DNA from: a virus
Length of the DNA: 64,000 nucleotides
IMG/VR virus record: IMGVR_UViG_3300009502_001749
Location: 23,837 to 87,836 of that record
Strand: one strand, 5' to 3'
The position numbers and the translations under genes were made by a program. Positions 1,857 to 63,927 of this stretch are shown piece after piece. Within the stretch, counting starts at the first letter, position 1; each line of letters starts with the position of its first letter. The notes under the pieces are model-generated. The model was not told where the DNA came from. It worked only from the letters and a program-made list of their open reading frames with translations, and ran no database searches.

Positions 1857-2096
1857 ATGATATCAGTTTGTAGATTATTTGAAATAAGTAAAGGTGGAGC
1901 TGCAGCATTAGGAGTAGCAGGTGGAACAGCAGCTGGAGTTGCCGGTGTAGCAGCAAAGAAAATGTATGATGAAGAAATGGCAAATCGAGTAAGAGAAGCA
2001 AATCCTATTAGAAAAGGTGCAAAATTTGTAGCGAAAATGTTTGATGATGGTGGACAATGGATTGGACGTAAAATTTGGGATGCTCATAATGGATAA
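1857..2096 (+). CDS. Leader-tagged glycine-zipper peptide
   Basis: MISVCRLFE leader followed by GGAAALGVAGGTAAGVAGVAA. Confidence 0.6.
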   Translation: MISVCRLFEISKGGAAALGVAGGTAAGVAGVAAKKMYDEEMANRVREANPIRKGAKFVAKMFDDGGQWIGRKIWDAHNG

Positions 2097-2110
2097 AAAT
2101 AAGGTGTAAA

Positions 2111-2989
2111 ATGGAAATTAAAGATCAAGAATTTCTTGGAGTTATATTACCTGATAAAGATAATAAACATCAAGGGCGTTATAAAGTTTATATACCAGTT
2201 CTTCAACCTTTTATGAAAGATAATGAAGGTATATGGGCTAAGAATCACGTTACTGATTATAGAAATACACCTTCAGCAGATGGTGTTTATGGAAGTTATT
2301 TTCCTTTACATGCAAAAACTCAAGTTATTGTTAAATTTTATACTGAGCAATACACAAGTGCTTATATTACTAGAATCACCTCAGATCACAATCCTGAATC
2401 TATGCCGTTCAAAATTATTGATAGAGACAGTTACTATCAACTTATTAGAACCCCAAAAAATAATCATTTAATTGCTTTATGTGAAGATACTGCAACTGGT
2501 GGAGCTGCCACAACTGCAAACTCAATTCACATATATTATAATAATAAAGCGATTACATTAATAATGGATAGTTCAGGAATGAGTATTAACGTAACAGCTG
2601 GAGATATAAATCTCAAAGGAGTTGCAAATACAAACATCCAAGTTGGTCAAGATTTAAATATAAAAGTAACTGGTGTTTGTAATATTCAATCTGATGCTGA
2701 TGTTCATATTAAAGCTGGAGGAGATGCTAATATTGAAGCTGGTGGAAATGCCAATGTTAAAGCTGGTGGAGATGCTAATATTCAATCTGGTGGAAGTGTT
2801 AGTATAAAAGCAGGAGGAGTTTGTAATATTGATGGTTCTATGGTTAATTTAAATGGTGGTGGTTCTTCAGCTGCTAAAGCGGCAAGATCTTCTGGTGCTG
2901 CTGGAACTGGAACACCAATCACAACAACAGATGAATTTAAATATTATGAAGGAAAAGATGGAACTGCAATTATAACAGCTAAAGGATAA
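2111..2989 (+). CDS. Baseplate central spike, gp5/gpV/VgrG-like (OB fold plus beta-helix repeats)
   Basis: N-terminal DKDNKHQGRYKVYIP OB-fold motif; 8-residue repeats (NIEAGGNA, NVKAGGDA); IDGSMVNLN near the end. Confidence 0.75.
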   Translation: MEIKDQEFLGVILPDKDNKHQGRYKVYIPVLQPFMKDNEGIWAKNHVTDYRNTPSADGVYGSYFPLHAKTQVIVKFYTEQYTSAYITRITSDHNPESMPFKIIDRDSYYQLIRTPKNNHLIALCEDTATGGAATTANSIHIYYNNKAITLIMDSSGMSINVTAGDINLKGVANTNIQVGQDLNIKVTGVCNIQSDADVHIKAGGDANIEAGGNANVKAGGDANIQSGGSVSIKAGGVCNIDGSMVNLNGGGSSAAKAARSSGAAGTGTPITTTDEFKYYEGKDGTAIITAKG

Positions 2990-2995
2990 TTAATT

Positions 2996-3328
2996 ATGAT
3001 ATCAATTATGAATTTATTTTATGAAAATAAAAGTGAAGAGAAAGAGATAAAAGATTTTTTAAAGAAAGAAGTTACTAAAAGTCATATAAAAAATGTTTTA
3101 TCAACAGGAGCTCTTGTTGGTACTGCTGTAACTGGTGGAACAGGATTATATAATATGTATAAAGGTGGAAGTTTTGTTGGAGATGAACCTGGAAGTTATG
3201 ATTCTTTAAAAAGTGGATTACGTTCTGGAGTTGGTTCTGCAGCTTTAACAGGATTATTTAATATTGGAAATGTTAGAAATCAACGAAAAGAGATTGATAG
3301 TTTAAAATTTAAAAAGAAAAAATCTTAG
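2996..3328 (+). CDS. Leader-tagged glycine-zipper protein
   Basis: MISIMNLFYE leader; two Gly-rich hydrophobic segments; KKKKS tail. Confidence 0.6.
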   Translation: MISIMNLFYENKSEEKEIKDFLKKEVTKSHIKNVLSTGALVGTAVTGGTGLYNMYKGGSFVGDEPGSYDSLKSGLRSGVGSAALTGLFNIGNVRNQRKEIDSLKFKKKKS

Positions 3329-3339
3329 GAGATTTAATT

Positions 3340-3537
3340 ATGATTTCAATTGTTATGGAAATTAGTCCAGAATTTATTCAGAATAGAAATTTAACAGGTG
3401 ATAATAAATTTTCTCAAGAACAAATTCGAAATGCATTAGTAGAAAAAGCAAAATCGCCTGTTGGTTCTGTTGCTAGAGCTGAAGCTGATAAAGTTATTAA
3501 AGACACAAGAGCAACATTTCCTTATCGTAAAAAATAA
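3340..3537 (+). CDS. Leader-tagged small protein
   Basis: RBS AGGAG; MISIVME leader. Confidence 0.55.
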   Translation: MISIVMEISPEFIQNRNLTGDNKFSQEQIRNALVEKAKSPVGSVARAEADKVIKDTRATFPYRKK

Positions 3538-3574
3538 GATTTTGCCGGTAAAAATAATACTTAGTGAGATTAAT

Positions 3575-3856: not shown

Positions 3857-3875
3857 TACTTTAGAGGTTAAAATA

Positions 3876-4526: not shown

Positions 4527-4554
4527 TAATCAAAAACAAAAGGAGAGTAATATT

Positions 4555-4758: not shown

Positions 4759-4773
4759 TTTCGGAGGTTTATT

Positions 4774-5315: not shown

Positions 5316-5333
5316 TTTGGAGGTTTATTATAC

Positions 5334-5765: not shown

Positions 5766-5781
5766 TTTTGGAGGTTTATTT

Positions 5782-5961: not shown

Positions 5962-6009
5962 AACAAATTGATATGAAGTTGAGAACTAATTTCTCTGCTT
6001 CTAAAAATA

Positions 6010-6021: not shown

Positions 6022-6063
6022 ATTTTATGAAAGGCTTTTAAAAGAATAAAATGTGAGGAAAAA

Positions 6064-8599: not shown

Positions 8600-10322
8600 A
8601 TGGCAAGAAAAAAAGAAGATACAAATAAAAGTGCAAACAATAGTAGTTATGATTCTTCAAATTTTGAAAGTGCATCAACTAGTCAAGCTGAACTTTTGGG
8701 AACAGCATTTGAATCTATTATTACAACTAAATATGGATTTGCTAGAGCACCAGAACCTTATCTTACTCCATTTGGAATTCAACATTTGGATGGTTTAATT
8801 GGTGGAGGAATAACTTCTTCAGCACCAGTTATGTTAACATCAACTCCAGAAACAGGTAAAAGTACATTAGCTTTTCAGCTTTCAAAGATATTTCAAACAT
8901 TATATCCAAATTCGATGGTTGTTTATTTGGATATTGAAACAGCAGCAAATAAATCTAATAAAAATAATGCAATGTCTCGAGTTAATATATTTGAGATTGA
9001 TGAAAAGAGATTCAGGTATGAACCTTTGGTTATTGATATAAACCAGTTGTTTGAGTTGATCGAACAGTTGTGTCAAGTAAAACAAATGTTTGAACAAAAG
9101 TCACAGAAAGAGTTTAAAGTATTTATTATTTGGGATAGTATAGCGGCAACACCTTCTTCTAAAGTTGCTGACGCTGAAGATCCAAATAAAATAATTGGGG
9201 TTAGCTCTAGGCTTTGGCTCCAATAAAATCTTGTGAATTGCTGGAACACCCTTAAAACTTTTCTACTACAAAGTAATCTGAAAAGATAAACTTGAATGTT
9301 TAAAAAAGAAAAGATTGGGCAATCAGCAGCCGAGCTCCTAAAGAATCTGCTAAATTTTATGGAGAAGGTTCAACGACTAGTCGAAAGACGTAGAGTTTAA
9401 GTAAACTCGAAGCGCAAGACATTCAGAAATGAATGAAGATATAGTCTGATCTATATGGAAACATATAGCTGAATAAAATTCAGAAGAAGAATTAACGATT
9501 CTTCTTAAACACAAATGAAAAGCTCGCCAGTTAACATTTGCATTAGAAAAATATTTGCCAATGATGGCTTTTAACAGAATCACATTTCTTGCTATTGATC
9601 AAGTTCGTGCAAATCTTCAGATTGATCCTTACGCTCAAAAAGAAAAGTCAGTCGGGATCTTTAAAGATTATCGCGCCGCTACATCAATATCAGCTCTCAA
9701 TCATAGAGTTGCTCAATGGTTATTTTTATCCAGAAAAGCAGCTATAACACCAGATGATGGTTTGGGTATTAATGGTTGGCAGATGAATCTATATGTAGAG
9801 AAGAATAAAATTGCACCATCTCAAGAATCAATTACATGTGTTTTTGATAAAAGAAATGGTCTTCATAAATTTTGGAGTGAGTATATTTTCCTTAGTGAAA
9901 TGATGCCATCTGAAAAGAAATATTATAAAACTGAAGAAAAAATACCTTATCCATTATCAATTATAAAATCTGGACCTCAGGTTCATCTTGAGTTTATAGA
10001 TCCAACAACTGGAAATGTTACTTATTCATCAGATAATATGTATAAGAAAAATATGAACAAAGCATATGATTCAGATGCTCAATTTAAAGCTGCTTTTGAT
10101 TATGTTGTTAGTATGGCTGTTGAACTTAGAATTAAACAAGGTCTTTTTAGAGAGAATGAATCAAAAGTTAATTTAAGTTCTGAAGAGATTGAAGAATTTG
10201 AAACTGAAAGTCTTGTTGATGAAGATATAAATACACCTAAAATATCTGCCGCTGAACAAATTGTAGCAGAAATACCTTCAACTAATATTGAAACCGAAGC
10301 AACATATGAATCAATATTTTAA
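8600..10322 (+). CDS. recA: RecA/UvsX-like recombinase, spliced join(8600..9201,9518..10322), 468 aa
   Basis: TPFGIQHLDGLIGGG; Walker A STPETGKST; YLDIE; Walker B IIWDSIAA. Splicing restores IIGV-KARQLT, followed by IDQVR and KNKIAP. Confidence 0.88.
9202..9517 (+). ncRNA. Group I intron (no ORF, 316 nt) in recA
   Basis: P AATTGCTGGAA, Q AATCAGCAGCC, R GTTCAACGACTA, S AAGATATAGTCT. P1 TTGGGGT/GCTCCAA has the U-G splice pair; P10 GCTTT/AAAGC; terminal G; splicing restores the frame. Confidence 0.93.
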
Positions 10323-11754: not shown

Positions 11755-12723
11755 TTGAGTGACTTAATTAATTTAATGGAAATGATCGAAACACCACAGG
11801 ATATTATTGAAGATATTATTGAAAGAGAGAAAAGTTCTGAAATTGTAGACTGTCCTTCATATGAAATTGTAACACCAAATATTCCACAATCTTATTCTTT
11901 ATTCGATATTGATAAATTTACAAAAGAATTGTATGATAAATCTGCCGCTAAAAATCAAGCTTATCGTGAAATAGTTCAGAATATTAATGCATATGATTTA
12001 GCAAAAAATTGTATAAGAGATATTGTTTATAAATTATTAAATACACCAGTTGAATCTTTTGCCGATAAATGGTTACCTATTTTATTAAGATCAACTTTAG
12101 GAAATGCTATACATAATTTCATTCAAGATAATTCTAATCAATTTACTGAAAGAGAAGTTTCTATAAAAGTTCCATCTAAAAGAATGTCTGTTAGATTAGA
12201 TAATCTTATCGGTCCAAATATTTTAGTAGAAATTAAAAGTTTACCTTATTTAGAATATGAAAAAATAATTAGAACTTGCAAACCAAGATTGGCAGATTTT
12301 TATCAAGGAGTAACTTATAAATATTTATTAGAGAATCATTTAGAAGAAGCAAAAAATTCTGGAGGAAAAGGAAAAACAAGAACTGATCCTCCGGCTTTAG
12401 ATAAATATGATATTCAACAAATTCAGTTCATTTATGTTGCACATGATGTAACAGCAAATGATGTTGAATCTTTAGCTGAAATTTTAGAACGAATCAAACA
12501 ATTAAAAAGACTTCTTAAGTCTAAGTCTAATACATTTTTCTTCATAACAACATTATCAATTGATGTAACAAATAATGTTGCAGATCCTTATATTAATCAT
12601 ATTAAAAATAAATTAGAAAGGATTAATTATTATTTAGATAATAATAAGATACCACCTGATGATGATAAATATATGGAAAAAGAATGTTTTTTCTGTCTAT
12701 ACAAAAAGTTATGTGGAAAATAA
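11755..12723 (+). CDS. Cas4-like PD-(D/E)xK exonuclease (solo)
   Basis: N-terminal Cys; GNAIH; RLD...EIKS; QxxxY; C-terminal CFFCLYKKLC Fe-S ligand pattern. Confidence 0.75.
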   Translation: MSDLINLMEMIETPQDIIEDIIEREKSSEIVDCPSYEIVTPNIPQSYSLFDIDKFTKELYDKSAAKNQAYREIVQNINAYDLAKNCIRDIVYKLLNTPVESFADKWLPILLRSTLGNAIHNFIQDNSNQFTEREVSIKVPSKRMSVRLDNLIGPNILVEIKSLPYLEYEKIIRTCKPRLADFYQGVTYKYLLENHLEEAKNSGGKGKTRTDPPALDKYDIQQIQFIYVAHDVTANDVESLAEILERIKQLKRLLKSKSNTFFFITTLSIDVTNNVADPYINHIKNKLERINYYLDNNKIPPDDDKYMEKECFFCLYKKLCGK

Positions 12724-15228: not shown

Positions 15229-17385
15229 ATGAATATAACAGGACAAAGTCAATACTCGAAAATTGTAGCGGGTCTGAGAGATCCAAAAACACATCTTGCA
15301 GGTCAAGATTTAAATTTAATTTTTGTTTATCCAATCTTATTACCTAACAAATTACCTGATCTGCGAAATGTAGAAACAATAATAAGAAATTTCATATCAA
15401 CAACATTTTTAAAAGAGATATTCATACAAAACACAATTAGTATGATTTCTTTAGCAAATCAAATTCAACCTCTTTCAGATGAAAGTGGAATGAAAATTGA
15501 TCCAAACACAACCATAGCACAAGTAATTCAAAATGTTCAAGCAACTGGATCTTCTGCTGGAATGGTAAGATCAGATACATCATCACCAAATTATAACGTG
15601 AGTTCAGGTTATCGTGATCAAATTCAAAGAAAGATTAATGAGAAGACAGCAGTAATTCAAAAAATAGTAAAAACAGATCCAGTAATGAGTAAGTTAAATC
15701 CTTATATTGAAATGATAACAATGGGAAATCTTATTGATGTTCCTGTTATTGTTGGTACAAAAACATTTCAAGTTGATACTTTATCATTGATTCATATTTT
15801 ATTAGCTTCTATTGCAATGGATAAAAAATTAAATCATGTTGATAATTTAAATTTTATTTGTGATAAACTTAACGGTTTAAATGAAGAACAATATTGGCTC
15901 TTATTAAATAATCTTGCCGCTGCAGATAAATCATTCAATATGTGGCAATGGACTAAAGAACTTGGTGGTAAAATAGGTGATAAAATTCCTAATGTTTCAC
16001 AATTTGTTGGAAAACAAACTGGAAAAATTGGATCTTTTTTATCTGGAATTAAATCATCAACTCAAAATTTTGCCGGTAACAAAAATGAATTTGTTGAAAA
16101 TCCATCCTTTGATATTTTAAGAATTTTAAAAACCAAATTGGATGAAACAAAATTATTTTTTAGATTTGTTTTAGATAGAGATTTTTTAAAATCTCAAATT
16201 GGACTTAATCCATATGATGCAAATGGTGCTAAAACAAAATTAATTTCAGATCTTTTTCCTGATTTGCAAAGGGCAAGTTCATCAACAATTCCCGGATTTC
16301 AAGATGCATTATCAAGCACAGGATTATCTGCTTTAAGATCAAGTGTAACTTTGGTTGAACCTGAACCATTAATGTCTGATAATATTGATTTACTTGATTT
16401 GATAAGAAATGAAATAAATGAAAAATTAATAATTGGAATAGCACAATCAAATAAAGATTTATATGAAAAAATAGCAGAAGGATTAAATAAAACTAATTTT
16501 GATACGACTAAAGGTGATGTTAATATTATTAAAAATTTAAGTTCATTTGATACCGGTGATGAAATTCAAAAAGTTGGTTCAAAACTTCAAAATGAACTAC
16601 CAGTAAATTTTTCAGATAGTCAGTATGAACAATTTTTACAAACATTAGATCAAGCTGGTCAATTATCAGTATTAAAAAGTAAGCAGATTGAGAATATAAT
16701 AACTGGATTTGGTGATGTTAGACAAGATATTATGAAAATTTTAAATGAAATTAGATCTATGATAAGAAATCAAATTAAAGTTATATTTGATAATTGTACT
16801 CGTCAATATATTTCTTCAGGTACAGTTGGAATGTCTCATTTACCAAGGGTAACAGTTAGAACAAATGATAAACGAACAATGGCAGATGTTATTCAAGGTA
16901 TTATACCAACATTAATCACTTATCTTACAGAATATTTTTATTTTTTATTTTTATCATCAGTTAAATTATCAATTAAAAAATTTATGATGAAAGCTGAAAT
17001 ATCAATTGATACAGCTTCAAATGATGTAACTGAATGGCCAAATTATACATTAGTTTTGCCGATAGAAATTGTTTCTGCACTACATGCTGCAATGGTTTCT
17101 AAAGGTTGGTATAATTTAACAACTAATACTAAAACAGGTATTAAATTAACTAGTGAAGAATTAGCAAAAGGTAATGTTATTCATGTGACAGATAATTATG
17201 TTAAAGGAATAGTTAAGTTTGTAAGTATGAAATTAGGTGTTCCAAATTTTATAGTTATTGATTCTAAGAAAGGAGATGTTTATTATAAATTAATGAACCA
17301 ATCTGGAATTAATAAAACTAAATTATCTACATTAGAAACATTTGTAACTGAGTCTTTAAATAAACCAGTAATTAACTATTATTAA
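15229..17385 (+). CDS. Large hypothetical protein (718 aa), possibly virion
   Basis: Long ORF in the structural region; no motif recognised. Confidence 0.7.
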   Translation: MNITGQSQYSKIVAGLRDPKTHLAGQDLNLIFVYPILLPNKLPDLRNVETIIRNFISTTFLKEIFIQNTISMISLANQIQPLSDESGMKIDPNTTIAQVIQNVQATGSSAGMVRSDTSSPNYNVSSGYRDQIQRKINEKTAVIQKIVKTDPVMSKLNPYIEMITMGNLIDVPVIVGTKTFQVDTLSLIHILLASIAMDKKLNHVDNLNFICDKLNGLNEEQYWLLLNNLAAADKSFNMWQWTKELGGKIGDKIPNVSQFVGKQTGKIGSFLSGIKSSTQNFAGNKNEFVENPSFDILRILKTKLDETKLFFRFVLDRDFLKSQIGLNPYDANGAKTKLISDLFPDLQRASSSTIPGFQDALSSTGLSALRSSVTLVEPEPLMSDNIDLLDLIRNEINEKLIIGIAQSNKDLYEKIAEGLNKTNFDTTKGDVNIIKNLSSFDTGDEIQKVGSKLQNELPVNFSDSQYEQFLQTLDQAGQLSVLKSKQIENIITGFGDVRQDIMKILNEIRSMIRNQIKVIFDNCTRQYISSGTVGMSHLPRVTVRTNDKRTMADVIQGIIPTLITYLTEYFYFLFLSSVKLSIKKFMMKAEISIDTASNDVTEWPNYTLVLPIEIVSALHAAMVSKGWYNLTTNTKTGIKLTSEELAKGNVIHVTDNYVKGIVKFVSMKLGVPNFIVIDSKKGDVYYKLMNQSGINKTKLSTLETFVTESLNKPVINYY

Positions 17386-19390: not shown

Positions 19391-19394
19391 AATT

Positions 19395-19432
19395 AATATC
19401 GGCAGAATCTTTAACTAGATCTTGCCGATATT
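19395..19432. repeat. Dispersed palindrome copy 1 (ATCGGCAAGAT...ATCTTGCCGAT family)
   Basis: Intergenic inverted repeat; left arm slightly degenerate. Confidence 0.85.
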
Positions 19433-19450
19433 TTTAAAATGAGGTAATAC

Positions 19451-23829: not shown

Positions 23830-23863
23830 TATCGGCAAGATCTGAAATATGATCTTGCCGATA
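23830..23863. repeat. Dispersed palindrome copy 2
   Basis: TATCGGCAAGATC TGAAATAT GATCTTGCCGATA. Confidence 0.9.
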
Positions 23864-31447: not shown

Positions 31448-31488
31448 AATTATCGGCAAGATCTTTAAATTAGATCTTGCCGATAATT
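31448..31488. repeat. Dispersed palindrome copy 3
   Basis: AATTATCGGCAAGATCT...AGATCTTGCCGATAATT. Confidence 0.9.
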
Positions 31489-38822: not shown

Positions 38823-38855
38823 ATCGGCAAGATTTAGAAATAAGATCTTGCCGAT
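38823..38855. repeat. Dispersed palindrome copy 4
   Basis: ATCGGCAAGAT...ATCTTGCCGAT. Confidence 0.88.
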
Positions 38856-39917: not shown

Positions 39918-42900
39918 ATGTCATTATTTGGCCAGTTTTTTAAAGATGATTCACTTGAAAATTTTGATGCTAGAATAGATTCACTTGTTAGTCAATTTCC
40001 TTCTACTGAAAAAGGAGAACCAGTTGATTTGTTATCTGGAGATTTTATTTCATCGTTTATGGAACATTCATCTAAAGATGAACTTGAAAAAGTACTTGCA
40101 GGAATATCTGTTTCTAGAGATAGACTTGAAAGATATGCTGTTTATGATGAAGCATATAAATATGTACCAATTCTGAAACGTATGATGAAAGTTTATGTTG
40201 CTAATATTTTACAAAAGAATCCAGTAACAGGTAAAAGCGTTCTCATTCAAGAGTCTGGAGATTTAACAAAAGAAAAGCGTCAGAATAAAGAAATTTTAGA
40301 ATCGGCGAAAGATTTTGCCGATAAATGTATTAAATCATTCGATTTATTAGCTAGATTAAAAAACAAAATTTTACCAAATGAACTAACCTATGGTGACTGT
40401 TATCTTGAAGTTGTTGATGTGAATCAAGAAATTAAAAAATCTGATCCGGAAGGTGCTGCAGCAGTTCAAATGACTACGTTGTTTGAAGGTGATTTAATAA
40501 ATATGACTGCTGAAGTTGATCAAATGAAAAATCGAGCAAATGGTCATTTGCCGATAGGACAAATTGATCAATTATTATATAAGACCGCTGAATATTTGGC
40601 TGATATTGAAGTTGCTTCTATTACAGAGTATGATCCTAATGAAAAGGATGATGAAGATAAAAAGAAACAAAGTAATGGATCAACAAATTATGCTGATAAT
40701 TCATCAACAAAAACTAGTGATAAAGAAAACAAAAAAGAAGTTCAAGATTTTAATGATATTGTTATTAAAATTCATAAACCTCACAATATTATAGTTTTAC
40801 AAACAAACTATGGATCAACTATAGGATATCTTGAAGTTGCAAAAGATGAATTTCCTCAAGTATTTAATTTAACTCAATCTCTTTCAACTTTAGTAGGACG
40901 TATAACATCACTAGTAGGAAAAGATCAATTAAGTCAAGATAATGTAACTGATAGGATTGTTCGATTTATTGTAAAACAAGCATTAGATAAAGCTGATAAG
41001 TCTAAAGCTTTTGATATGAGTCAGCAGAATGTACAGAATATTAATGACATTCTGAAAAATTTAGACCCACAAGTTTACACTTACATTAAAAGATTAATTA
41101 TCGAACAAGGATTAAATCAGACACAGTCACAATATCTTAACAAGTTAAAGATCAGATTTATTTCTTCAAGCCGTATGATTTCATTTACAGTTCCATCGAA
41201 TGAGTATGATCCGTATGGAATTTCGTTTATTGATAATTTAGTATTTCAGTGTAAGTTGTATATTCTTTCACAGTTGTCTAATGTGATTATGAAGTTGAGT
41301 AGAGCTGCGCCAGTAAGAAAATGGACGATAGATACGGGCAGCACTCAAATGCACGCTAACTTGATTCAGAAGTTGAAACGTGAGCTTTACAATACAAGAG
41401 TAACATTAGATGATTTAGGTAGTTTTAAGAGTATTCCCAAGCTGTTAAGTGACTTCAAGGATAAATTTTTGTCCCCTATATCAGTAATGATATTTGAAAA
41501 ATTCGGTGAATTCGGTGGAACTCCTAGTAATAGGACAATACCGAGCCAAGCTTTAAATCTTGCTGCTAACAAGATTTATTGAAGGTGTAACGACTATCCC
41601 GAAAGGGAGTACGTCCAAGCGGACGGAAGTGCCGAATATCCTGTAATAGTAAAATAAAAAGTATGGAGGACAGCGCCGGCCAGCGTTGATAGATACCGAT
41701 TTATCTATCTTACTCCTTTTAAACAATTAACCTAATCGGAGGATTACAAATGAATAAAGAAAAAATTGAAAAAGCAAAACAAATTATAAAAAATTTTAAA
41801 AATGAGGAAGAACATTCAAATTTTATTTTTAAAATGTGTATTGAATGGAAATTATCTATTGAAGAAATTTCAGAATGTTATAATAATTATACTCCAGATC
41901 TCATTAAACAATTTTTGATTGAAGTGTATAAAGTTGAGTTTAAAAAGTGTAAAAAATGTTGTGAAACTAGATCAATAACATCTTTTACAAAACAATTTAA
42001 AGATAGTAATATAACTCGATCTTATTGTAAAGTTTGTAATAATCTTGAAAAAGCAAAATATAGAAAAATTCCAGAAGTGAGACAAAAAATATTGAATATG
42101 CTAAAGAATATAATCAAATGTATAATATTAATAATAGAGAACAAATTAAACAAACACATCATGAATATTATGAAACAAATAAAGATATTATATCTCAAAA
42201 ACAGAAAGAATATTATGAATTACATTCAGATGATGTTAAACAAAGATCAAAAGATTATTATTATGATAATCAAGAAAAATTTATACAACTTAGTATAGAT
42301 TATAAAAAACAACATCCAGAATGTGCTGAATACAGTAAAGAATATAATAAAATACATCATGATGAATTATTAGAATATAAAAATGAATATAATAGAAATA
42401 AATATAAAACAAATTCAAAACATAGATTAAGAGTTTGTTTTGGTTCAAATTTATATAATTCAATTAAGAATTTAAAAAGTGGTAGAAAATGGGAAGAAAT
42501 TGTTGGATATACTCTTGAACAACTTATGGAACATCTTGAGTCTAAATTTGATGATAAAATGACTTGGGATAATTATGGAAGTTATTGGCATGTTGATCAT
42601 ATTGTTGGAGTTGCAAATTTTAATTACACATCTTATGAAGATGAAGCTTTTAAAAAATGTTGGTCGTTAGAAAATTTACAACCTTTATATGGAGTTGATA
42701 ATCTTAAAAAAGGTGACACAATTAGTGAAAAATGGAATAATACTGAGTTAGCAGCTCAATTACTTATGTAACATAAAATTACAGGATAATGATATAGTCT
42801 AGTCTGTATAGTAATATACAGTTGTCTTTAAAAAGACAGGTTAGAAGTTGCGATTCTAGCTGAATATAAACGATGTTCGTGCTCGCGAAGGGCGGAAATA

Positions 42901-47604: not shown

Positions 47605-47638
47605 TATCGGCAAGATCTGAAATATGATCTTGCCGATA
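47605..47638. repeat. Dispersed palindrome copy 5
   Basis: Identical to copy 2; directly after the capsid gene. Confidence 0.9.
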
Positions 47639-49168: not shown

Positions 49169-49202
49169 TATCGGCAAGATCTGAAATAGAATCTTGCCGA
49201 TA
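49169..49202. repeat. Dispersed palindrome copy 6
   Basis: TATCGGCAAGAT...ATCTTGCCGATA. Confidence 0.9.
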
Positions 49203-49791: not shown

Positions 49792-50595
49792 TTAATCAAT
49801 ATTTGTAAATTCAGCAATTTTACTTAGAGTTATATCATTACTTTTTTCAAGATTGTAACTAGCGCGTAATAGAATTGGCGATTTTTCATTTCTAAATATA
49901 TCTTTTATAAAAGTTTTACGAAGATATATTTTATAAGTATCTGATATTATAATATCAAATATTGACCAAAGTGGAAGAATTCGTTGAATGATATTAATAA
50001 CTTCAAATTTTGAACATTCTCCAACATATAATTCAGATGGATTCATAATTGAAAAATAGATTTGACAAACTTGTTTATCAATTGTTGTAAAAATAAAACC
50101 TTTATTTAAAATTGATGGAAAAGTTTTAAGAAAATCTGTTTTAAATCTAGTTTTTTGATCATAATTAATTTGATAAGTTTTTGGATCGATGTTTTTGAAA
50201 GTTAATTTTCCTTCTACACCAATTTCTAATTCATTTTGTTTTTTCTTTTCAACAATAGTTGTAAAATGAATTAATCCTGTTTCAGCTTGACCAAACATAT
50301 CATCTGGTAGTCTTTTAACACAATCAAAACTCACAATACTATCAGACACATTGTAAGTTGCAACTCCTGGAATAAGTTCATATAATGATTGTATTTTAGC
50401 TAATTTGCCGATAGGAACAAAAAACTTTGAATAATAATTTTTATCCATTTTAATAAAAGGACAAACAACATCTGTAACTGATTCTCTTATTTTTTTTGCT
50501 AAGATAAATTGTTGTTCAGAAGACATCATTACTTGTGTGAGATTGACATTTGGTTTCTTATATTCCGATTGTTGAAAACTATTAACTAAAGGCAT
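49792..50595 (-). CDS. Hypothetical protein (267 aa), lone antisense gene in the structural block
   Basis: RBS GGGGAGG on the - strand; own candidate promoter at 50635-50646. Confidence 0.7.
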   Translation of the reverse strand: MPLVNSFQQSEYKKPNVNLTQVMMSSEQQFILAKKIRESVTDVVCPFIKMDKNYYSKFFVPIGKLAKIQSLYELIPGVATYNVSDSIVSFDCVKRLPDDMFGQAETGLIHFTTIVEKKKQNELEIGVEGKLTFKNIDPKTYQINYDQKTRFKTDFLKTFPSILNKGFIFTTIDKQVCQIYFSIMNPSELYVGECSKFEVINIIQRILPLWSIFDIIISDTYKIYLRKTFIKDIFRNEKSPILLRASYNLEKSNDITLSKIAEFTNID

Positions 50596-56252: not shown

Positions 56253-56287
56253 TATCGGCAAGATCTTTAAATTAGATCTTGCCGATA
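56253..56287. repeat. Dispersed palindrome copy 7
   Basis: Core identical to copy 3; lies between sheath and tube. Confidence 0.9.
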
Positions 56288-57245: not shown

Positions 57246-57590
57246 TTATTTTCTATCTTCAACTTGTTTATTCAAAGCTGCCCAGAACTCATCTTTTGTA
57301 CAAATTTCATATTTAATATATTGATCTTCGTAGTGCCACCATCCATCTGTTCTAAATCCCCAGATTAATTTGAGGGCTTTTTTGAATTCTTCTTCAGATT
57401 CTTCCCAAAGTTGTTTTACAACTGGAAATTTTTCAGAAAGTTCTACTTTAACTTGATCTTTTATTTTCCATTCAACACAATTAATTTCATGATATTGTGA
57501 ATTATGAATTTTTATCAAATTATACAAAAATTCATTTGCTATATTTTCATCATCTGTAAAGATTTGAAGTGTTATAGTTTTTTCGATCAT
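57246..57590 (-). CDS. Hypothetical protein
   Basis: RBS GGAG; 114 aa. Confidence 0.6.
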   Translation of the reverse strand: MIEKTITLQIFTDDENIANEFLYNLIKIHNSQYHEINCVEWKIKDQVKVELSEKFPVVKQLWEESEEEFKKALKLIWGFRTDGWWHYEDQYIKYEICTKDEFWAALNKQVEDRK

Positions 57591-57600
57591 TTATTTCTCC

Positions 57601-57948
57601 TTAACTGAAATAATACATTGCATGTTCTCCACAATGAGAAGTTTCTCTAATAAGTTTTCTTCCTTCCCATTTAATAATTTTCAAATATGTTCCTAAATTT
57701 TGTTCATCAACTATTTTTTTAAGAATTTGATGATTTCTTGAATTATATCTGAAACATCTGTGGTAATTATATTTCTGATTACTATCAATTTTTAATGTAT
57801 CACAGAAATCAATATATGATGTTTTCTTAGAAATTTCTGTATTATTATATACAGAAAACTTAATGATAATATTATTATTAAAACACCATTTATTAATATT
57901 GTTATTTTTATGACATTGACCTCTCATGCGGAAAACATTAATCCACAT
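57601..57948 (-). CDS. Hypothetical protein (start revised to MWINVF)
   Basis: Revised start removes the 125-nt overlap with the upstream gene. Confidence 0.5.
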   Translation of the reverse strand: MWINVFRMRGQCHKNNNINKWCFNNNIIIKFSVYNNTEISKKTSYIDFCDTLKIDSNQKYNYHRCFRYNSRNHQILKKIVDEQNLGTYLKIIKWEGRKLIRETSHCGEHAMYYFS

Positions 57949-57961
57949 ATTATTAAATACA

Positions 57962-58420
57962 TCAACTCCAACACAAAGGTACAAAGTCTCCTTCGATGAT
58001 AAGAGCAGGAATTTGAGCGTCATATACATAGTAGATTTCAGCCCAAGTTCTGAAAGTTCCAGTTGATGAAGTTTTAATTTCAACAACTACTTGAATATCT
58101 TTCAATCCAAATTTATCACCAACACATGTAAATGCTTCAACAAGTGTTATATATTTATCAATTGTTAATGGAAGGTATTCATATGTTCGTTGTTTAATCA
58201 TCCATGGACCATATCCAAAATCAACAGAATTTGGAGGTGATGTTTTATAATCTTTACCAACTCCAAGTTGCCATTCTTTTAAAACGTTTATAAATGTTTT
58301 AATTTTGAATTTTTGTAAATGATCTGTTGATAAATCATGAAGATCTTTATCTATTGGTAATATAATATTTAAAGTTACTTGACCATATCCATGTAAGTTT
58401 AAAATCCAAACGGTTTTCAT
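57962..58420 (-). CDS. Hypothetical protein
   Basis: RBS AGGAG; 152 aa. Confidence 0.6.
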   Translation of the reverse strand: MKTVWILNLHGYGQVTLNIILPIDKDLHDLSTDHLQKFKIKTFINVLKEWQLGVGKDYKTSPPNSVDFGYGPWMIKQRTYEYLPLTIDKYITLVEAFTCVGDKFGLKDIQVVVEIKTSSTGTFRTWAEIYYVYDAQIPALIIEGDFVPLCWS

Positions 58421-58585
58421 TTTCTTCTCCTTTATTTTTGACTAAAATATTTTTTGTTCCAATTTTTCTTTTTCTTTTGATGGAGATATTGTTTTAGTCG
58501 TTCATATGATTCTTTATCTTCTTTTAATTTTTCAGAGTTAATTTTAAGTTCAAATATCATTTCTTTTTCTGTTTCAATTTTAAAT

Positions 58586-59116
58586 TCATCCATTCTTTTT
58601 CCATCCATATCTTGGTTTAATATTCAAGTTTTCACAAATCAACTTTTCAATTTCTGGATAACTTGAAATCTTATCACCTTCATTTTCATAAACAGCTCTT
58701 GCTGAATTAATATCATTAATTTCTAAATAATGAATTAAAGTTCGAACAGAACTAACTCCTCTTCCATTATTTTCTTGTTTTTGAAGATCAAATAATTTTT
58801 TAGCTAAATTTTTTATTTTTTCAAATTCTTCTTGAGTAAACTTCATATCTTTTTCTTCTTGAGTTTCAGTTTCACCATTGACTAGATATTCTCTAGCATT
58901 GTGTATTGCACATTCCAATTCGAACAAACTGTTATCTGAATCTGTTTGAACAAATGATTGTGCCGCTTGAAGTAATTCTCTTAATCTTGTTTCTGGTATT
59001 TCTTTTCCAGCGTTAAAAGCCAATCCAAGAGCGAGTGTTTTTGACATTCTTCCTTCAGCAATTTCATCTAATAATTTAATAACATGTTCATCTCTTTTGT
59101 CGTTTATCTTTTTCAT
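58586..59116 (-). CDS. Hypothetical protein
   Basis: RBS AGGAG; 176 aa. Confidence 0.65.
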   Translation of the reverse strand: MKKINDKRDEHVIKLLDEIAEGRMSKTLALGLAFNAGKEIPETRLRELLQAAQSFVQTDSDNSLFELECAIHNAREYLVNGETETQEEKDMKFTQEEFEKIKNLAKKLFDLQKQENNGRGVSSVRTLIHYLEINDINSARAVYENEGDKISSYPEIEKLICENLNIKPRYGWKKNG

Positions 59117-59170
59117 TTCTTCTCCTTTTTTATAATAAGATTTAAGTAATAAACATACCTAATTTACTAT

Positions 59171-59182
59171 ATTATTTCTATA
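59171..59182 (-). promoter_or_regulatory. Candidate phage promoter element TATAGAAATAAT
   Basis: Exact consensus on the - strand, upstream of 59116. Confidence 0.45.
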
Positions 59183-59429
59183 TGAAATCGCACAAAATTA
59201 AAAATTGGCGGCAAGATCTATTTCTAGATTCTTGCCGCCAAAAGTTATTTATTTTTTCAATAATTTCCCAATTTTTACTTCTTTTTTGTTTTTCACTTAA
59301 TTGTTTACATAATTCATCAAAGCTTAAATTATCAACGTTAATATCAATTGATAATGTACTAAGTCTTAATAAATATATATTATTTATTTCTCTTTGTTTT
59401 ATTCCATTAAATGCAGTTAATAAATCCAT
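59178..59429 (-). CDS. Hypothetical protein whose 3' end runs through a palindrome
   Basis: AGGA RBS; follows the 59436 gene. Confidence 0.4.
   Translation of the reverse strand: MDLLTAFNGIKQREINNIYLLRLSTLSIDINVDNLSFDELCKQLSEKQKRSKNWEIIEKINNFWRQESRNRSCRQFLILCDFI
59205..59241. repeat. Dispersed palindrome copy 8 (variant arms)
   Basis: TTGGCGGCAAGA...TCTTGCCGCCAA, with compensatory changes in the outer arms. Confidence 0.8.
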
Positions 59430-59435
59430 TTGTTC

Positions 59436-59786
59436 CTAATCAATATATGAAACTGATTTTGCTATTTTCATACAAGTACAAAAAGCAAATCTTTTTTCAT
59501 CATAAATTACTTTTATTAATTTACCATTTACTGTTGCATCTTTAAATACTTTAATCATTTCTGTATTGTTTGGTATAAGAACACTAACATCTTCTTTTGA
59601 CATTGATCCAATTCCGTTTCTCATTATACCTAAACTTATATCAGCTTCAATATAATCTGGACATAATATTGGAGTTTCATTAGTGACTTTTTTAACTTGT
59701 CCTACTAAGTCACTATCTCTTTGAGAGTATCCACATCCAATAAGTAAACAAGTTATAAATATCAGTGTTATTATTTTTGATTTCAT
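59436..59786 (-). CDS. Putative lipoprotein
   Basis: Signal peptide with LIGC lipobox. Confidence 0.65.
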   Translation of the reverse strand: MKSKIITLIFITCLLIGCGYSQRDSDLVGQVKKVTNETPILCPDYIEADISLGIMRNGIGSMSKEDVSVLIPNNTEMIKVFKDATVNGKLIKVIYDEKRFAFCTCMKIAKSVSYID

Positions 59787-60334
59787 TCTTTCTCCTTTTG
59801 TATTTCTTGAACATAACGATTCACAATCTCATCTATTGAAACTGGCCGATAATTCCAAACATCAACCCCAACATTAATCACATTTTTACAAAGTTTGAAT
59901 AAATTATGAACATGTCCACACAGTTGAACATTTGGATTAAATACAACTGACCAAGCTGGATCATGATGTAGAAAAAATTTAATTTTTCCATTTTCTCCAT
60001 TTATTGAAGTATAATTCATTTCAGTTGCTAATGTTGTATGAACTGAAGCAAATCCAGCTTCAATCAAATCCCATGGTCTTTGTCTATCATGGTTACCTAA
60101 AATTAAATGATGTATACCATTCAGTTGACCTAAAATTCTTTCTATCATATGAACATCTCCAATAGGTAACATTGTGAAATCTCCAATATGATATGTTTCA
60201 TCATCTGGTCCAACAATTTCATTATGATTTTTAATAAATGTTTTGTTCATTTGTTTTGTTGTTTTAAATGGTCTTTCACATGGAAATATAATACCTTCAT
60301 GATAATAGTGTTCATCTGCCGTTAAATATTTCAT
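59783..60334 (-). CDS. Calcineurin-like metallophosphoesterase
   Basis: ADEH, GDF, GNHD, HHDP, GHVH, NVGVD. Confidence 0.88.
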   Translation of the reverse strand: MKYLTADEHYYHEGIIFPCERPFKTTKQMNKTFIKNHNEIVGPDDETYHIGDFTMLPIGDVHMIERILGQLNGIHHLILGNHDRQRPWDLIEAGFASVHTTLATEMNYTSINGENGKIKFFLHHDPAWSVVFNPNVQLCGHVHNLFKLCKNVINVGVDVWNYRPVSIDEIVNRYVQEIQKEKE

Positions 60335-60528
60335 TGATTATCATCTCCACTATATAAGATAATATTACTTATTCTATCATTTGCTCCTTGCAAACCATTT
60401 TCCAACTTTTTGATTCTTTTAATTAAATCAACATTTGTTTCTTTTAAAGATTTAATATCTTTTTGTGATGTAAAAACTTCTTTTTCAAGAATTTCTAATT
60501 TAGCTTTAAGACTTTCAATTGTTGGCAT
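60331..60528 (-). CDS. Small coiled-coil protein
   Basis: Overlaps both neighbours; heptad pattern. Confidence 0.55.
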   Translation of the reverse strand: MPTIESLKAKLEILEKEVFTSQKDIKSLKETNVDLIKRIKKLENGLQGANDRISNIILYSGDDNQ

Positions 60529-61825
60529 TTTTGTTTTTATTCTCCTTTCTTTCTTGTCGTATTTCTTTCCATGATTTTTGATTATCGCTGCGATCTTTTA
60601 AACTCAAAATTGGCTTAAATTTATCAATAACAGTTGCAGTCGGTTCAATTAACATTTCAGTTAATGCACTATCTTTATATGCATCTGGAGATTCATCTAA
60701 TGTTGAAGCACAAACACTTGTTGAATATATTCCTTTCATATCTTTTTCAAATTTTTCAAGTTTTAATGTAGCTTTTGCTTGTTCTCTACTTAATAATCTT
60801 CCAGCTCCATGAGGAGCAGAATAATTCCAATCTGGATTACTTTTACCTTCACATAGAAGAATACCATCTCTCATATTTAATGGAATAACCATTTTTTGTC
60901 CGATATACGAAGAGATAGCTCCTTTTCTAATTATGTTATCTTTTGGATTTATATAATTATGAACAGTTTCAATATAATTTGTTGATTTAGTATTTAGAAG
61001 ATTTTTAATGGTTTTCATAATTAAGGCTCTATTATAGTGAGCATATAATTCAATAAATCCCATATCATCTAAATAATCTTTAGCATGTTGATCTTGTAAA
61101 AATGATAAATCGTTTGGAACATTTCCAACAAATAAATTTTCTCTTAATTTGTTTATATTATGTTCTATTTCTTTACCTTTATAATCACTTTTAATTCGAT
61201 TAATTTCTTTGATATAAAACTCTTTTTTTGGTTTATTAATATCTTCTTCTGCTATATTTTGATGATATTCGCAGATTTTTTTACCAAAATTTCTTGAACC
61301 ACTATGTATAATTATACAAGGCTTTCCAGTTTTTTCTGAAACACCAATTTCTATAAAATGATTACCACCACCTAATGTTCCGAGTGAACATTCTGCATAT
61401 TCTAAATCAATTCCAATTTGTTTACATTTCTTTTTAAACCAATTATAATCATATTTAAACCATTTAAGTTGTTCCCATTTATCAAATAATGGTGAATTAT
61501 GAACATTGGTTCCGAATGGAATTTGTTCTCTAATCATTTCATCCAATGTTTTCAAATCAATACGATTAATTTCATCTTTATTAATCTCAAGAAAAAGCAT
61601 TCCACAATCACCATCAACACCAATTACATTAGGAATAATTTTATCAGTTTTTTCCATAGTGAATCCAATCACAGAACCTGTTCCAGAATGTGTATCTGGC
61701 ATTATTACTACTCTATTTGTGAATGCTGGATGACTAATAAAGTGATGAATTTGATTAATACAAGTTTCATCTATTTCTTCTGCATAGATTATTGCTGTTG
61801 TATATTTTCCTTTTATTTCAAACAT
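60515..61825 (-). CDS. rtcB: RtcB-family RNA ligase
   Basis: MPDTH, GVDGDCG, GTLGGGNHFIE, HSGSR, HNY, RKGA, SAPHGAGR, DESPDAYK. Confidence 0.93.
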   Translation of the reverse strand: MFEIKGKYTTAIIYAEEIDETCINQIHHFISHPAFTNRVVIMPDTHSGTGSVIGFTMEKTDKIIPNVIGVDGDCGMLFLEINKDEINRIDLKTLDEMIREQIPFGTNVHNSPLFDKWEQLKWFKYDYNWFKKKCKQIGIDLEYAECSLGTLGGGNHFIEIGVSEKTGKPCIIIHSGSRNFGKKICEYHQNIAEEDINKPKKEFYIKEINRIKSDYKGKEIEHNINKLRENLFVGNVPNDLSFLQDQHAKDYLDDMGFIELYAHYNRALIMKTIKNLLNTKSTNYIETVHNYINPKDNIIRKGAISSYIGQKMVIPLNMRDGILLCEGKSNPDWNYSAPHGAGRLLSREQAKATLKLEKFEKDMKGIYSTSVCASTLDESPDAYKDSALTEMLIEPTATVIDKFKPILSLKDRSDNQKSWKEIRQERKENKNKNANN

Positions 61826-61964
61826 TTTATACTCTCGTCTTTTTTAATAATATTTAAATATTTTTTACATGTTACTCTTTTTTTATCATTACTCCAAGTA
61901 TGACCTGAAGCTAATGATTTTGAATCAGAACATGGAATAGTATCATTTTTGACCCAATGTGTTT

Positions 61965-62195
61965 TCATGGTCTCAAAATAATATTGTATATTTTATTATC
62001 ATGAATTAATCCACCAAGTTTAATAGCTTCATCCATTCTTTGTTTATATAATTGTCTACTAACTACTAAACCAAAACATGTTCCTATCATTATCCAAATT
62101 AATAGAATTGTTAAATGAGATTTAACCCATAAACTAATTTTATGACCTTTCATAATTTCATTTTTTGTATGTTCTAAAAATTCATCACCAGTCAT
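61965..62195 (-). CDS. Small membrane protein
   Basis: Single TM segment; RBS AGGAG. Confidence 0.55.
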   Translation of the reverse strand: MTGDEFLEHTKNEIMKGHKISLWVKSHLTILLIWIMIGTCFGLVVSRQLYKQRMDEAIKLGGLIHDNKIYNIILRP

Positions 62196-62196
62196 T

Positions 62197-62688
62197 TTAT
62201 GTCTCCTTTATTATATTTTCTTTTATAAAATCTAAAAGATTACCACCTTCAAATTTAAATCCTCTTATTCCAATACGTTGTGCCGCTAACATATCTTTAT
62301 CACGATCCCCAATCATAAAAGAATTATCTAAATCAATTGGACCTTTATCATATATAGCTTTCATAAATAATTCTGTTTTAGGTTTTCTACATAAACATTC
62401 TTCTTCTTTAGTATGTGGACAAATATAGAATCCATCGATTTTTTTGCCGATATTAACTTTTAATGTTTTATTTATCCATTTATGTAACTCATCAACTTGA
62501 TTTCTTGTATATAAACCTTTATTAATACCACTTTGGTTAGTGATAATAATAATTTTATATCCTTCTTTCTTTAATAGTTTTATAGCTTCTTTAACTCCAT
62601 CAATCCATTTGAAATCTACTTTATCCCAAACATATCCAACGTCATGATTAATAACACCATCACGATCTAAGAAAGCAATTTTATTCAT
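62197..62688 (-). CDS. gmhB: D-glycero-D-manno-heptose 1,7-bisphosphate phosphatase (HAD)
   Basis: FLDRDGVIN, TNQSG, CPH...CLCRKP, MIGDRDKD. Confidence 0.88.
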   Translation of the reverse strand: MNKIAFLDRDGVINHDVGYVWDKVDFKWIDGVKEAIKLLKKEGYKIIIITNQSGINKGLYTRNQVDELHKWINKTLKVNIGKKIDGFYICPHTKEEECLCRKPKTELFMKAIYDKGPIDLDNSFMIGDRDKDMLAAQRIGIRGFKFEGGNLLDFIKENIIKET

Positions 62689-62996
62689 ATTTTATCCTTA
62701 TCAAAATGACCAACATCATAATGTTGTTTTAATTCTTCCATATTATTAATCACAACACCACATTTACAAGTTACTATTTCTTTTCCTCTTACAGATTCAA
62801 TAACTTCATCAAAAGTTGGTCTTATTGATTTTAATAAAAGATTAGAAATGAAATTTACTTGATTAATACATTCATTTATTTTATTCCATATTTCACTTTG
62901 CCAATTATGTCTTGCTTGTGCTCCTTGTTGTTGTCCAGTTAATTCATCTATTATTTCTTCAAAAAATGGTGGTAAATGTTCAATTATTTTTATCAT
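62685..62996 (-). CDS. Hypothetical protein with a C2H2-like end
   Basis: CKCG...HY...H; overlaps both neighbours. Confidence 0.55.
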   Translation of the reverse strand: MIKIIEHLPPFFEEIIDELTGQQQGAQARHNWQSEIWNKINECINQVNFISNLLLKSIRPTFDEVIESVRGKEIVTCKCGVVINNMEELKQHYDVGHFDKDKI

Positions 62997-63927
62997 AATA
63001 AATCTCCTCTTTTAATTCTTCTTGAGTTATAGCGGCAGTTCCGCGTTTTTCAACAACAAGTCCTGCTGCCATATTTGATAATTCAACCGCTTGTTCAATT
63101 TCTGCTCCGGCACCAATTGCCAAAGCTAAAACAGCAACAACTGTATCTCCTGCGCCGCTAACATCAAATAATCTTTTAGCTGTTGGTGGAAAATCTAATC
63201 GTTCTTTATCTCTACGAAGAAGAGTCATACCATTTTCACCTCTAGTTATGAGAATATTTTTAATATCATATGTTCCAGTTAAATAATTCAAACTATCAAT
63301 ATCAATACTTTCAGTTGCAAGAAATAATTCTTTCATATTTGGAGTTATAATAGTTGCTCCAGAATATTTTATCCAATTTTTTCTTTTAGGATCTATTATA
63401 ATTGGTTTATTTTTGAAATGTAGTTTTATCACATCTAATATATCATCTGTTATTGTTCCTTTATCATAATCAGATATCACAACAACATCAACATCTTCAT
63501 AATTATTTATTATGTCAAAAATTATTTTTTGTTCATCTGTTGTACATATTTTATGTTGAGGTTCTGTGTCTATTCTCACAATTTGTTGATTATGAGCAAT
63601 AATTCTATTTTTAGTTATAGTTGACCAAAAAGGATCAATAATTATATTATGATCTATATTAAAATAATCAATTAAACTAGCAAGAATTATTCCAGAATCA
63701 TCATCACCAATAACACCTATTATATTTACATTTCCATTAAGAGATTTAATATTATATGCAGTATTACCAGCTCCACCTGGTCTCATAATAGATTTTTCAA
63801 ATTTTACAATTGGAATTGGGGCTTCTGGTGATATTCTATTAACAGTTCCATAAGTATATTTATCTAACATTACATCACCAATGATGAGAATTTTAACTTT
63901 ATTAAATTTTTCGATTATCTCTTTCAT
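62980..63927 (-). CDS. Heptose-7-phosphate kinase (HldE/RfaE domain I, PfkB family)
   Basis: GDVMLD...RISPEAP...GGAGN...SDYDKG...DPK...TPN...DVSGAGDT. Confidence 0.9.
   Translation of the reverse strand: MKEIIEKFNKVKILIIGDVMLDKYTYGTVNRISPEAPIPIVKFEKSIMRPGGAGNTAYNIKSLNGNVNIIGVIGDDDSGIILASLIDYFNIDHNIIIDPFWSTITKNRIIAHNQQIVRIDTEPQHKICTTDEQKIIFDIINNYEDVDVVVISDYDKGTITDDILDVIKLHFKNKPIIIDPKRKNWIKYSGATIITPNMKELFLATESIDIDSLNYLTGTYDIKNILITRGENGMTLLRRDKERLDFPPTAKRLFDVSGAGDTVVAVLALAIGAGAEIEQAVELSNMAAGLVVEKRGTAAITQEELKEEIYYDKNN

Follow-up and report, generated by a model that had tools for sequence, protein, structure and literature searches.

TGCCGNT, a strand-biased DNA word dispersed through genes and intergenic hairpins of a small group of freshwater jumbo phages

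Genomic context of the word

The stretch analysed here (the window) comprises 64,000 nucleotides, namely bases 23837-87836 of the 87,836-bp contig IMGVR_UViG_3300009502_001749 (G000, 28.8% GC), which by its encoded proteins belongs to a contractile-tail phage. The genes of the window include those for a tail sheath, a 1561-aa protein with an SLT domain and an RtcB ligase, and throughout them is scattered a short word, TCTTGCCGNT or (TCT)TGCCGNT, that recurs about once per kb in a small group of giant lake-water phages. Among the INPHARED phages nothing was matched beyond distant sheath similarities, the G000 tail sheath being 25% identical to those of PBS1 and AR9, and the metagenome runs that contain the G000 sequence come from lake water and freshwater. 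The IMG/VR contig G001 (285,572 bp, estimated 95% complete) is syntenic with G000 and encodes a sheath that is 77% identical; because of this size, sheath identity and synteny, we take the G000 contig to represent about 30% of a jumbo-phage genome of about 285 kb. Three further relatives are referred to throughout: G007:C1 (CAZRCF010000001.1, 256,708 bp), a near-complete jumbo-phage genome inside a metagenome-assembled genome (MAG) labelled Lentimicrobiaceae; G002, a 68.7-kb fragment with a sheath 65% identical to that of G000; and G004, a more distant relative that is complete at 314.8 kb, has direct terminal repeats and carries a sheath with 56% identity. The observed/expected ratio of CpG is 0.44 in G000 and 0.41 in G001, a strong depletion accompanied by an excess of TpG and CpA; it is higher in G007:C1 (0.62) and G002 (0.78), and at 0.93 CpG is not depleted in G004.

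Enrichment and sharpness of TGCCGNT

In the window, TGCCGNT occurs 68 times between positions 1940 and 63037, with 48 copies on the plus strand and 20 on the minus strand, whereas dinucleotide-preserving shuffles of the same DNA contain 4.15 +/- 1.9 copies and at most 8. An earlier note on this stretch had put the copies at 45-50 and about 20, respectively, where composition would predict only a few; both estimates are borne out, and all the coordinates that it listed are real sites. The whole contig carries 94 copies (66 plus, 28 minus), and 66 of its 70 plus-strand TGCCG pentamers are followed by NT. The fuller consensus reads ARATYT-TGCCG-N-T-A, the extended sequence that carries the word is AGATCTTGCCGATA, and the best-defined form longer than TGCCGNT itself is TCTTGCCG(NT). 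The full TCTTGCCG left half is borne by 24 of the 68 window sites; its 37 copies in the whole contig contrast with 0.3 predicted by a first-order model, an enrichment of more than 100-fold.

The boundaries of the word are sharp. When three genomes are pooled, TGCCGNT is enriched 12-fold, as opposed to about 1-fold for nearly all of its one-mismatch neighbours. The neighbours that rise above this level are CGCCGNT (5-fold), TGCTGNT (2.9-fold), which is the synonymous or CpG-decay form, TGCCGNA (2.2-fold), which represents a relaxed right half found mainly in G007, and TGCAGNT (1.8-fold), which uses the other common Ala codon. Such an abrupt drop fits a protein that reads six fixed bases. TGCCGNT is moreover the only dispersed word of its kind, since the other strongly enriched 8-mers of G001 stem from localized Ser-Gly-Thr coding repeats. 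These long (Ser-Gly-Thr)n repeats lie at about 20-40 kb and 260-285 kb of G001 and account for very high counts of ACAAGTGG, GGAACATC and TCTGGAAC, which are unrelated to TGCCGNT.

Two copies of the word, at 24544..24550 and 36923..36929 (both plus strand), belong to a near-identical module of about 37 nt that occurs at 24529-24565 and again at 36908-36944. In both modules TGCCGCT occupies the loop of a local stem (AAATCTTG/CAAGATTT) and a TGA follows directly.

Constraint at the level of DNA

Inside the coding sequences (CDS) of G000, TGCCGNT is found 52 times in sense and 24 times in antisense orientation. Within-gene codon shuffles that keep both the protein and the codon usage yield 7.5 +/- 2.5 sense and 4.2 +/- 1.8 antisense copies, and a strict, dinucleotide-preserving shuffle of third positions yields 20 +/- 3.4 and 6.5 +/- 2.0. 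Likewise, G001 has 138 sense and 126 antisense copies against 27 and 12 after shuffling, and G007:C1 has 75 and 57 against 26 and 16, so that the enrichment persists against codon and dinucleotide-preserving shuffles in all three genomes. The frames used in G000 are xxT-GCC-GNT (37 copies), xTG-CCG-NTx (13) and TGC-CGN-Txx (1), as exemplified by the plus-strand singlets at 12060..12066 (TTT-GCC-GAT) and 17057..17063 (TTG-CCG-ATA), both of which are kept at the same place in G001; 38 of the 65 rare GCC codons of G000 lie within the word. The use of several frames and of rare GC-rich codons had been pointed out before and is confirmed by these figures.

The flank preferences are identical across the frame classes and in the antisense copies. 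Flanks shared by all frames and by antisense copies imply a constraint on DNA rather than on peptides, and, together with the shuffles, the frame and antisense analysis rules out a peptide or codon artefact. The proposal of the earlier note is therefore supported in part, namely in that the word acts as a DNA-level signal: the flanks do not depend on frame, the excess survives shuffling, so that the first refuting outcome named by the note did not arise, and the strand polarity described below ignores gene direction.

Distribution, spacing and turnover

For the relatives, expected counts were taken from a first-order model or from a reversed-pattern control. TGCCGNT is present 319 times in G001 (16.5 expected), 182 times in G007:C1 (27.6 expected), 43 times in G002 (11.6 expected) and 116 times in G004 (60.5 expected), and the corresponding figures for TCTTGCCG are 102 versus 1.0, 113 versus 1.8, 30 versus 0.8 and 12 versus 3.1. 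Overall, TGCCGNT is enriched 12-19-fold in three genomes and TCTTGCCG 38-120-fold in four. The word is hence common to G001, G007:C1 and G002 but not to G004; G003 and G006 are not enriched, and G005 reaches just about 2-fold over the reversed control. Among the carriers, the TCTTGCCG left half is the common denominator, whereas the NT right half is kept strictly by G000 and G001 but loosely by G007 and G002. A 14-mer scan of viral contigs returned mostly chance single matches.

Site spacing is not significantly below random (coefficients of variation 0.84 and 0.94), which led us to reject regular spacing, and the position within genes is uniform, with no preference for gene starts or ends. 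Across 70 gene pairs orthologous between G000 and G001, at 77% nucleotide identity, 54 sites of the former and 49 of the latter can be aligned, and 21 are shared (39%), compared with a background of 25-36% for the same six positions and of 17% for other CpG-containing windows. Losses between the two genomes are mostly GCC to GCT or its other-strand equivalent, the commonest being the CpG transition from TGCCG to TGCTG, and against a fair background no excess amino-acid cost of site gain was observed. Site density in G001 is 1.03 per kb in core genes, 1.30 in clade-specific genes and 0.84 in unique genes. As to conservation in relatives, which the earlier note had named as a check on its proposal, individual positions are thus kept little better than background (21 of 54), and it is the density that is maintained. 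Density kept while positions turn over suggests that selection, or drive, acts on density rather than on fixed positions. A methylase or Vsr-type drive was rejected, as neither a C5 nor an N4/N6 DNA methyltransferase (PF00145, PF01555) was matched in the phages.

Taken together, we consider it very probable that (TCT)TGCCGNT has been selected as a recognition word in DNA, that it is private to a single small lineage of freshwater jumbo phages, and that coding does not explain its density.

Strand polarity

The singlets of G000, that is, copies outside inverted pairs, favour the plus strand by 54:16. In the minus-strand genes of this contig, six sites lie on the plus strand and one on the minus strand. 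The plus-strand site at 50406..50412 is located inside the lone minus-strand gene 49792-50595 and is hence antisense to it, and the minus-strand block at 57246..63927, which includes the RtcB gene, holds plus-strand sites at 58961, 60317, 62281 and 62445 along with a single minus-strand site at 63031. The plus-strand skew described in the earlier note is accordingly correct in kind, although its size was overstated, as the relatives are more weakly skewed. Counting all sites, the plus:minus ratio is 175:144 in G001 and 111:71 in G007:C1; for singlets it is 143:112 in G001, 85:45 in G007:C1 and 22:13 in G002, where the reversed orientation of the contig has been allowed for. Pooled singlets divide 149:76 in plus-strand genes and 115:90 in minus-strand genes, which corresponds to a genome-strand effect of about 1.6-fold and a sense effect of about 1.2-fold.

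The cumulative skew climbs steadily and in the same direction in all four genomes, also across points at which gene orientation and GC skew reverse, and no strand switch point occurs along any of them. This differs from the FtsK orienting polar sequences (KOPS) and SpoIIIE recognition sequences (SRS), for which a skew above 85% that flips at the terminus is the mark, in that 56-77% of the present sites lie on one strand and no flip is seen. The tail-sheath gene is encoded on the favoured strand, which may parallel the top-strand position of active Chi in lambda and LLS.

Intergenic inverted pairs

Depending on the genome, about 15-30% of the sites are held in inverted pairs, and seven intergenic pairs are present in the window, so that the uptake-like architecture of in-gene singlets plus intergenic inverted pairs, which had been noticed before, is indeed there. 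The layout is ATCGGCAAGATC, a loop of 6-11 nt and then GATCTTGCCGAT; the arm is near-invariant over 13 nt, and the arms are arranged divergently in 63 cases and convergently in 4 (three genomes). Hairpins begin at a median of 9 nt past a stop codon and about 23 nt ahead of the next start, 51 of 62 are situated between co-oriented genes, and folding energies range from -17 to -25 kcal/mol.

The pair ATCGGCA / TGCCGAT at 19398..19429 (-17.8 kcal/mol) has one irregularity in its left stem and lies 8 nt past a stop and 22 nt before a start. A perfect 12-bp stem at 23831..23862 (-21.8 kcal/mol), 11 nt past the stop of a 1075-aa gene, is identical in stem and loop to the pair at 47606..47637 (-21.8 kcal/mol). 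The most stable pairs are found at 31452..31484 (-25.3 kcal/mol), 9 nt past the stop of the 1561-aa SLT-domain gene, and at 56254..56286 (-25.4 kcal/mol), 12 nt past the tail-sheath stop; G001 in turn has a plus-strand site 39 nt past its own sheath stop. The remaining two pairs are at 38823..38855 (-18.1 kcal/mol) and at 49170..49201 (-18.6 kcal/mol), the latter only 3 nt past a stop codon. Besides these, the 1561-aa gene contains one of the rare convergent close pairs, TGCCGCT followed by ATCGGCA (26898..26924), and an imperfect in-gene hairpin at 40301..40322 (plus strand) has as its left arm ATCGGCG, a one-off variant of the word's complement. Hidden hairpin partners of the singlets were sought and rejected, as the distribution is bimodal, with either a full partner or background.

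A GC-rich stem-loop just downstream of a gene is what an intrinsic terminator has in common with these pairs. The U-tract is lacking, however: five or more T in the next 8 nt follow just 10 of 51 hairpins, and the first two positions are mostly A. The inverted pairs thus look like intercistronic RNA stem-loops rather than canonical intrinsic terminators.

Candidate readers and host

We compared the gene contents of the relatives in search of a reader. Twenty-two proteins of at least 120 aa are common to G001 and G007:C1 and missing from G004. They include several HNH_3-AP2 endonucleases as well as a RecQ-like helicase, a NAD-dependent DNA ligase, a dimeric dUTPase and a cpYpsA (SLOG) protein (G001 204206-205723, 216655-218532, 197686-198330 and 234602-235129, respectively, all on the minus strand). 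Matches to AP2 number four in G001, two in G007:C1 and one in G000, with none in G004 or in the fragments. The family that combines an HNH endonuclease with an AP2/ERF-type domain is encoded in G001 at 108866-109498, 133874-134434 and 135528-136190 (minus strand) and at 19188-19745 (plus strand), and in G000 at contig positions 10616-11308, upstream of the window. The alignment of its HNH part to I-HmuI, a nicking enzyme, is weak (1u3e, E ~0.007), and its AP2 part aligns to solved plant AP2/ERF domains. As the solved AP2 domains read very different words, the specificity of this part cannot be inferred from them, and the literature on the DNA specificity of HNH-AP2 enzymes offered nothing usable.

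A RecB-type nuclease was not found in the phages, and AddAB-like open reading frames are present in the low-GC bacterial bin that carried G007:C1. That G007:C1 was binned with this MAG is accounted for by the GC content of the MAG itself, 29.7%; its presence in a Lentimicrobiaceae MAG reflects a composition-driven binning error or else points to the host. CpG is not depleted in the non-phage contigs of this bin. Other MAGs, labelled Bacteroidetes, Patescibacteria, Nitrospiraceae and Geobacteraceae, contain smaller phage-like fragments. Matches to the exact 22-nt hairpin arms in collections of bacterial genomes were discarded as host leads, being either chance terminators of high-GC genomes or phage-like contigs of 28-31% GC in MAGs of inconsistent taxonomy.

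Interpretation of the word

We tentatively prefer, with a probability of about 0.3, the reading that the word acts in the manner of Chi, as a polar signal to a helicase-nuclease that tracks along DNA, in which we infer both the reader and the outcome of reading. Phage DNA, linear or concatemeric, would be entered at an end by an enzyme of the RecBCD/AddAB class that reads the word along one strand; having met it, the enzyme would cease to degrade the DNA and turn to recombination or protection. A genome packaged by the headful, with its exposed ends mainly on one side, could be protected by numerous copies in both orientations and a surplus in one. On this view the intergenic pairs would have an ordinary role as intercistronic stem-loops for RNA 3' ends or RNA stability, and their stems may have taken up the favoured GC-rich word, by which both strands would be served at no coding cost. 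We favour this reading because a polarity that is uniform and indifferent to transcription requires an enzyme moving along DNA from an end. The lack of a RecB-type nuclease among the phage proteins and the AddAB-like open reading frames of the low-GC bin also speak for it.

Chi-rich phages are known from E. coli (LLS and P1, with GCTGGTGG) and Pseudomonas (MD8, with GCTGGCGC); Chi occurs once per 1.86 kb in LLS and once per 1.9 kb in P1, is their most frequent octamer, and its sites 'come and go' (PMC12315714). Like these arrays, the present word is short and non-palindromic, exceeds both chance and codon usage, is scattered in genes at about 0.5-1 per kb with one orientation in excess, turns over in position and is found in some relatives only. 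The Chi-rich phages differ in that their word is the known Chi of the host and their growth depends on RecBCD, whereas here the candidate bin is without the word, the skew is weaker and the word is not G-rich. In addition, the occurrence of about 15-30% of copies in intergenic hairpins has not been reported for Chi.

Several points weigh against a Chi-like function. The word is not G-rich, unlike the published Chi sequences, and its polarity, with 56-77% of sites on one strand, is weaker than that of cos phages (20:3 in LLS). The lineage possesses a RecQ-like helicase and a NAD-dependent ligase of its own and is therefore not obviously dependent on host recombination. The complete relative G004 lacks both this word and any other dispersed enriched word. 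The non-phage contigs of the G007 MAG (382 kb), the only candidate host bin, although it may not be the host, contain no TCTTGCCG where 4-6 would be expected, and TGCCGNT is enriched just 1.5-2-fold in them; across 250 Bacteroidota genomes the word reaches 1-4-fold the reversed control, without any outlier. The earlier note had suggested looking for the enrichment in the host as well; neither set showed it. Finally, Chi leaves the near-invariant 13-nt hairpin arm unexplained.

The main rival, to which we give a low probability, is that the word is the binding or nicking site of a phage protein, the I-HmuI-like HNH-AP2 endonuclease being the candidate. It would suit a word that is private to the lineage, whose right half drifts between strict and relaxed within that lineage, and which is absent from the candidate host bin. 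The HNH_3-AP2 genes are among the 22 proteins shared by G001 and G007 and absent from the motif-less G004, and both alignments described above, that to I-HmuI and that to AP2/ERF domains, agree with such a role. A precedent exists in WACTRTGAC of the Pseudomonas phages tf and Rembedalsseter, which is enriched in 61 phages, lies inside CDS in 88% of cases and is tied to nicks (PMC11780129). Similar to the nick motifs of tf, Rembedalsseter and T5, the word is clade-private, more than ten-fold enriched, mostly in CDS and in either orientation to the gene, and it is kept as a feature across relatives of little nucleotide identity. The nick motifs differ in being present at about 0.2 per kb and clustered to one side of the genome, as compared with about 1 per kb and an even spread here, roughly five times the published density; physical nicks were demonstrated for them, whereas the present word is known from sequence, and no hairpin form was reported for them. 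On the other side, HNH-AP2 genes code for typical homing endonucleases of the mobile kind, and their patchy presence could accordingly be incidental; the association compares three genomes with one complete genome; the fragments are uninformative; and the specificity of AP2 is not inferable. DNA nicked about once per kb on both strands, and in the two arms of 63 hairpins at a distance of 25-30 nt, would be fragile. As such closely spaced copies on both strands fit nicking badly, we place the Chi-like reading ahead of it.

A broader formulation, likewise improbable in our judgement, would have the word serve as a self-mark of the phage lineage for its own machinery and owe nothing to the host. 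Here, a phage-encoded reader, possibly the AP2-domain HNH enzymes, would recognise a 13-nt duplex in double-stranded DNA and again in intergenic hairpins, extruded or single-stranded, where the stem supplies it. Nicking, recombination or packaging would thereby receive a polar signal distributed over the giant chromosome, and the phage would have its own equivalent of the Chi or uptake words of bacteria.

Rather unlikely is a directional self-mark for a phage DNA translocase, with the sites acting as dispersed pac-like entry points of the terminase or as KOPS-like guides. A polarity that is uniform along the chromosome and independent of transcription and GC skew would suit it, as would the restriction of the word to the lineage and its even density across gene classes. 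Nevertheless, the spacing is random rather than regular, skews of the KOPS type far exceed 1.6:1, and no candidate reader was identified for it; to the best of our knowledge, no phage uses a distributed self-mark system of this kind.

We doubt even more that the sites are lagging-strand priming sites read by a sequence-specific phage primase, with the hairpins as single-strand initiation signals. One site per 1.3-3 kb per strand does fall within the length range of Okazaki fragments, a GC-rich site in an AT-rich, CpG-poor genome would need selection to persist, and priming signals of the hairpin type exist, as in the ssi of RSF1010 and the G4 origin. Known primases, however, read 3-5 nt, the spacing is random, and the polarity never flips, unlike what bidirectional replication would leave behind.

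Similarly unlikely, on balance, is the RNA hairpin as the primary element, be it a terminator, an RNase site or a stabiliser, with the singlets as RNA half-sites or as targets of hairpin-derived small RNAs. The strength of the hairpins, their position shortly after stops and mostly between co-oriented genes, the 63:4 arm order, the near-invariant 13-nt arms and the plus-strand site after the G001 sheath gene are all in keeping with it. Against this stand the singlets, which in G001 are about equally common in sense and antisense, have no nearby partner and follow the genome strand rather than the mRNA in their polarity; hairpins make up just the 15-30% given above, and the U-tract follows only 10 of 51. 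Asymmetric sites in large number with a phage-encoded reader are also known from the stoperators of Cluster A mycobacteriophages (gp71 of L5), of which dozens, each of 13 bp, are spread genome-wide. Stoperators occupy mainly short intergenic gaps and are oriented with transcription, unlike the sites described here, which are mainly inside genes and ignore its direction.

Least probable of all is an uptake sequence of a competent host or a by-product of mutation or composition pressure in the lineage, since, for all the resemblance in architecture and the strong CpG depletion of G000 and G001 with TGCCG to TGCTG as the commonest loss, no sampled bacterial genome (the G007 bin, 250 Bacteroidota) reaches the density of an uptake signal sequence (USS), the word is strand-biased where USS are not, a sole dispersed enriched word, all others being local coding repeats or Shine-Dalgarno-like, argues against a general composition pressure, and CpG decay works against the word in phages where no C5 or N4/N6 methyltransferase was found. 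The resemblance to the USS of Haemophilus and the DNA uptake sequences (DUS) of Neisseria extends to in-gene singlets in several frames, inverted intergenic stem-loops, a strong core with weaker flanks, and about one copy per kb with the density held through turnover. USS and DUS are features of competent bacteria, serve DNA uptake and show no strand bias, whereas the carrier here is a jumbo phage of lytic type and the word has polarity.

Published examples of clade-private dispersed words in phages are limited to host Chi (LLS, P1, MD8) and nick-associated motifs, the function of which is still without an answer after 50 years. The present case adds an uncultured jumbo-phage lineage with the highest density among the cases compared, a USS-like combination of singlets and hairpin pairs, a chromosome-wide polarity that ignores transcription, and a short list of lineage-specific candidate readers. 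Should the reader be encoded by the phage, the word would reveal the way in which a phage chromosome of 285 kb is marked or handled and could serve as a metagenome tag for the lineage; should it belong to the host, the word would predict the host Chi and could help to assign the host.

Other features of the contig

No tRNA genes were found in the window. A group I catalytic intron is located at 9149-9468 of the window (plus strand; Rfam RF00028, 93 bits) and is the sole one to reach the Rfam gathering score. In the whole contig, GGAGGCG and TGGAGGCG are present in 9 and 7 copies, respectively, on the coding strand, against less than 0.2 expected, and resemble an extended Shine-Dalgarno context.

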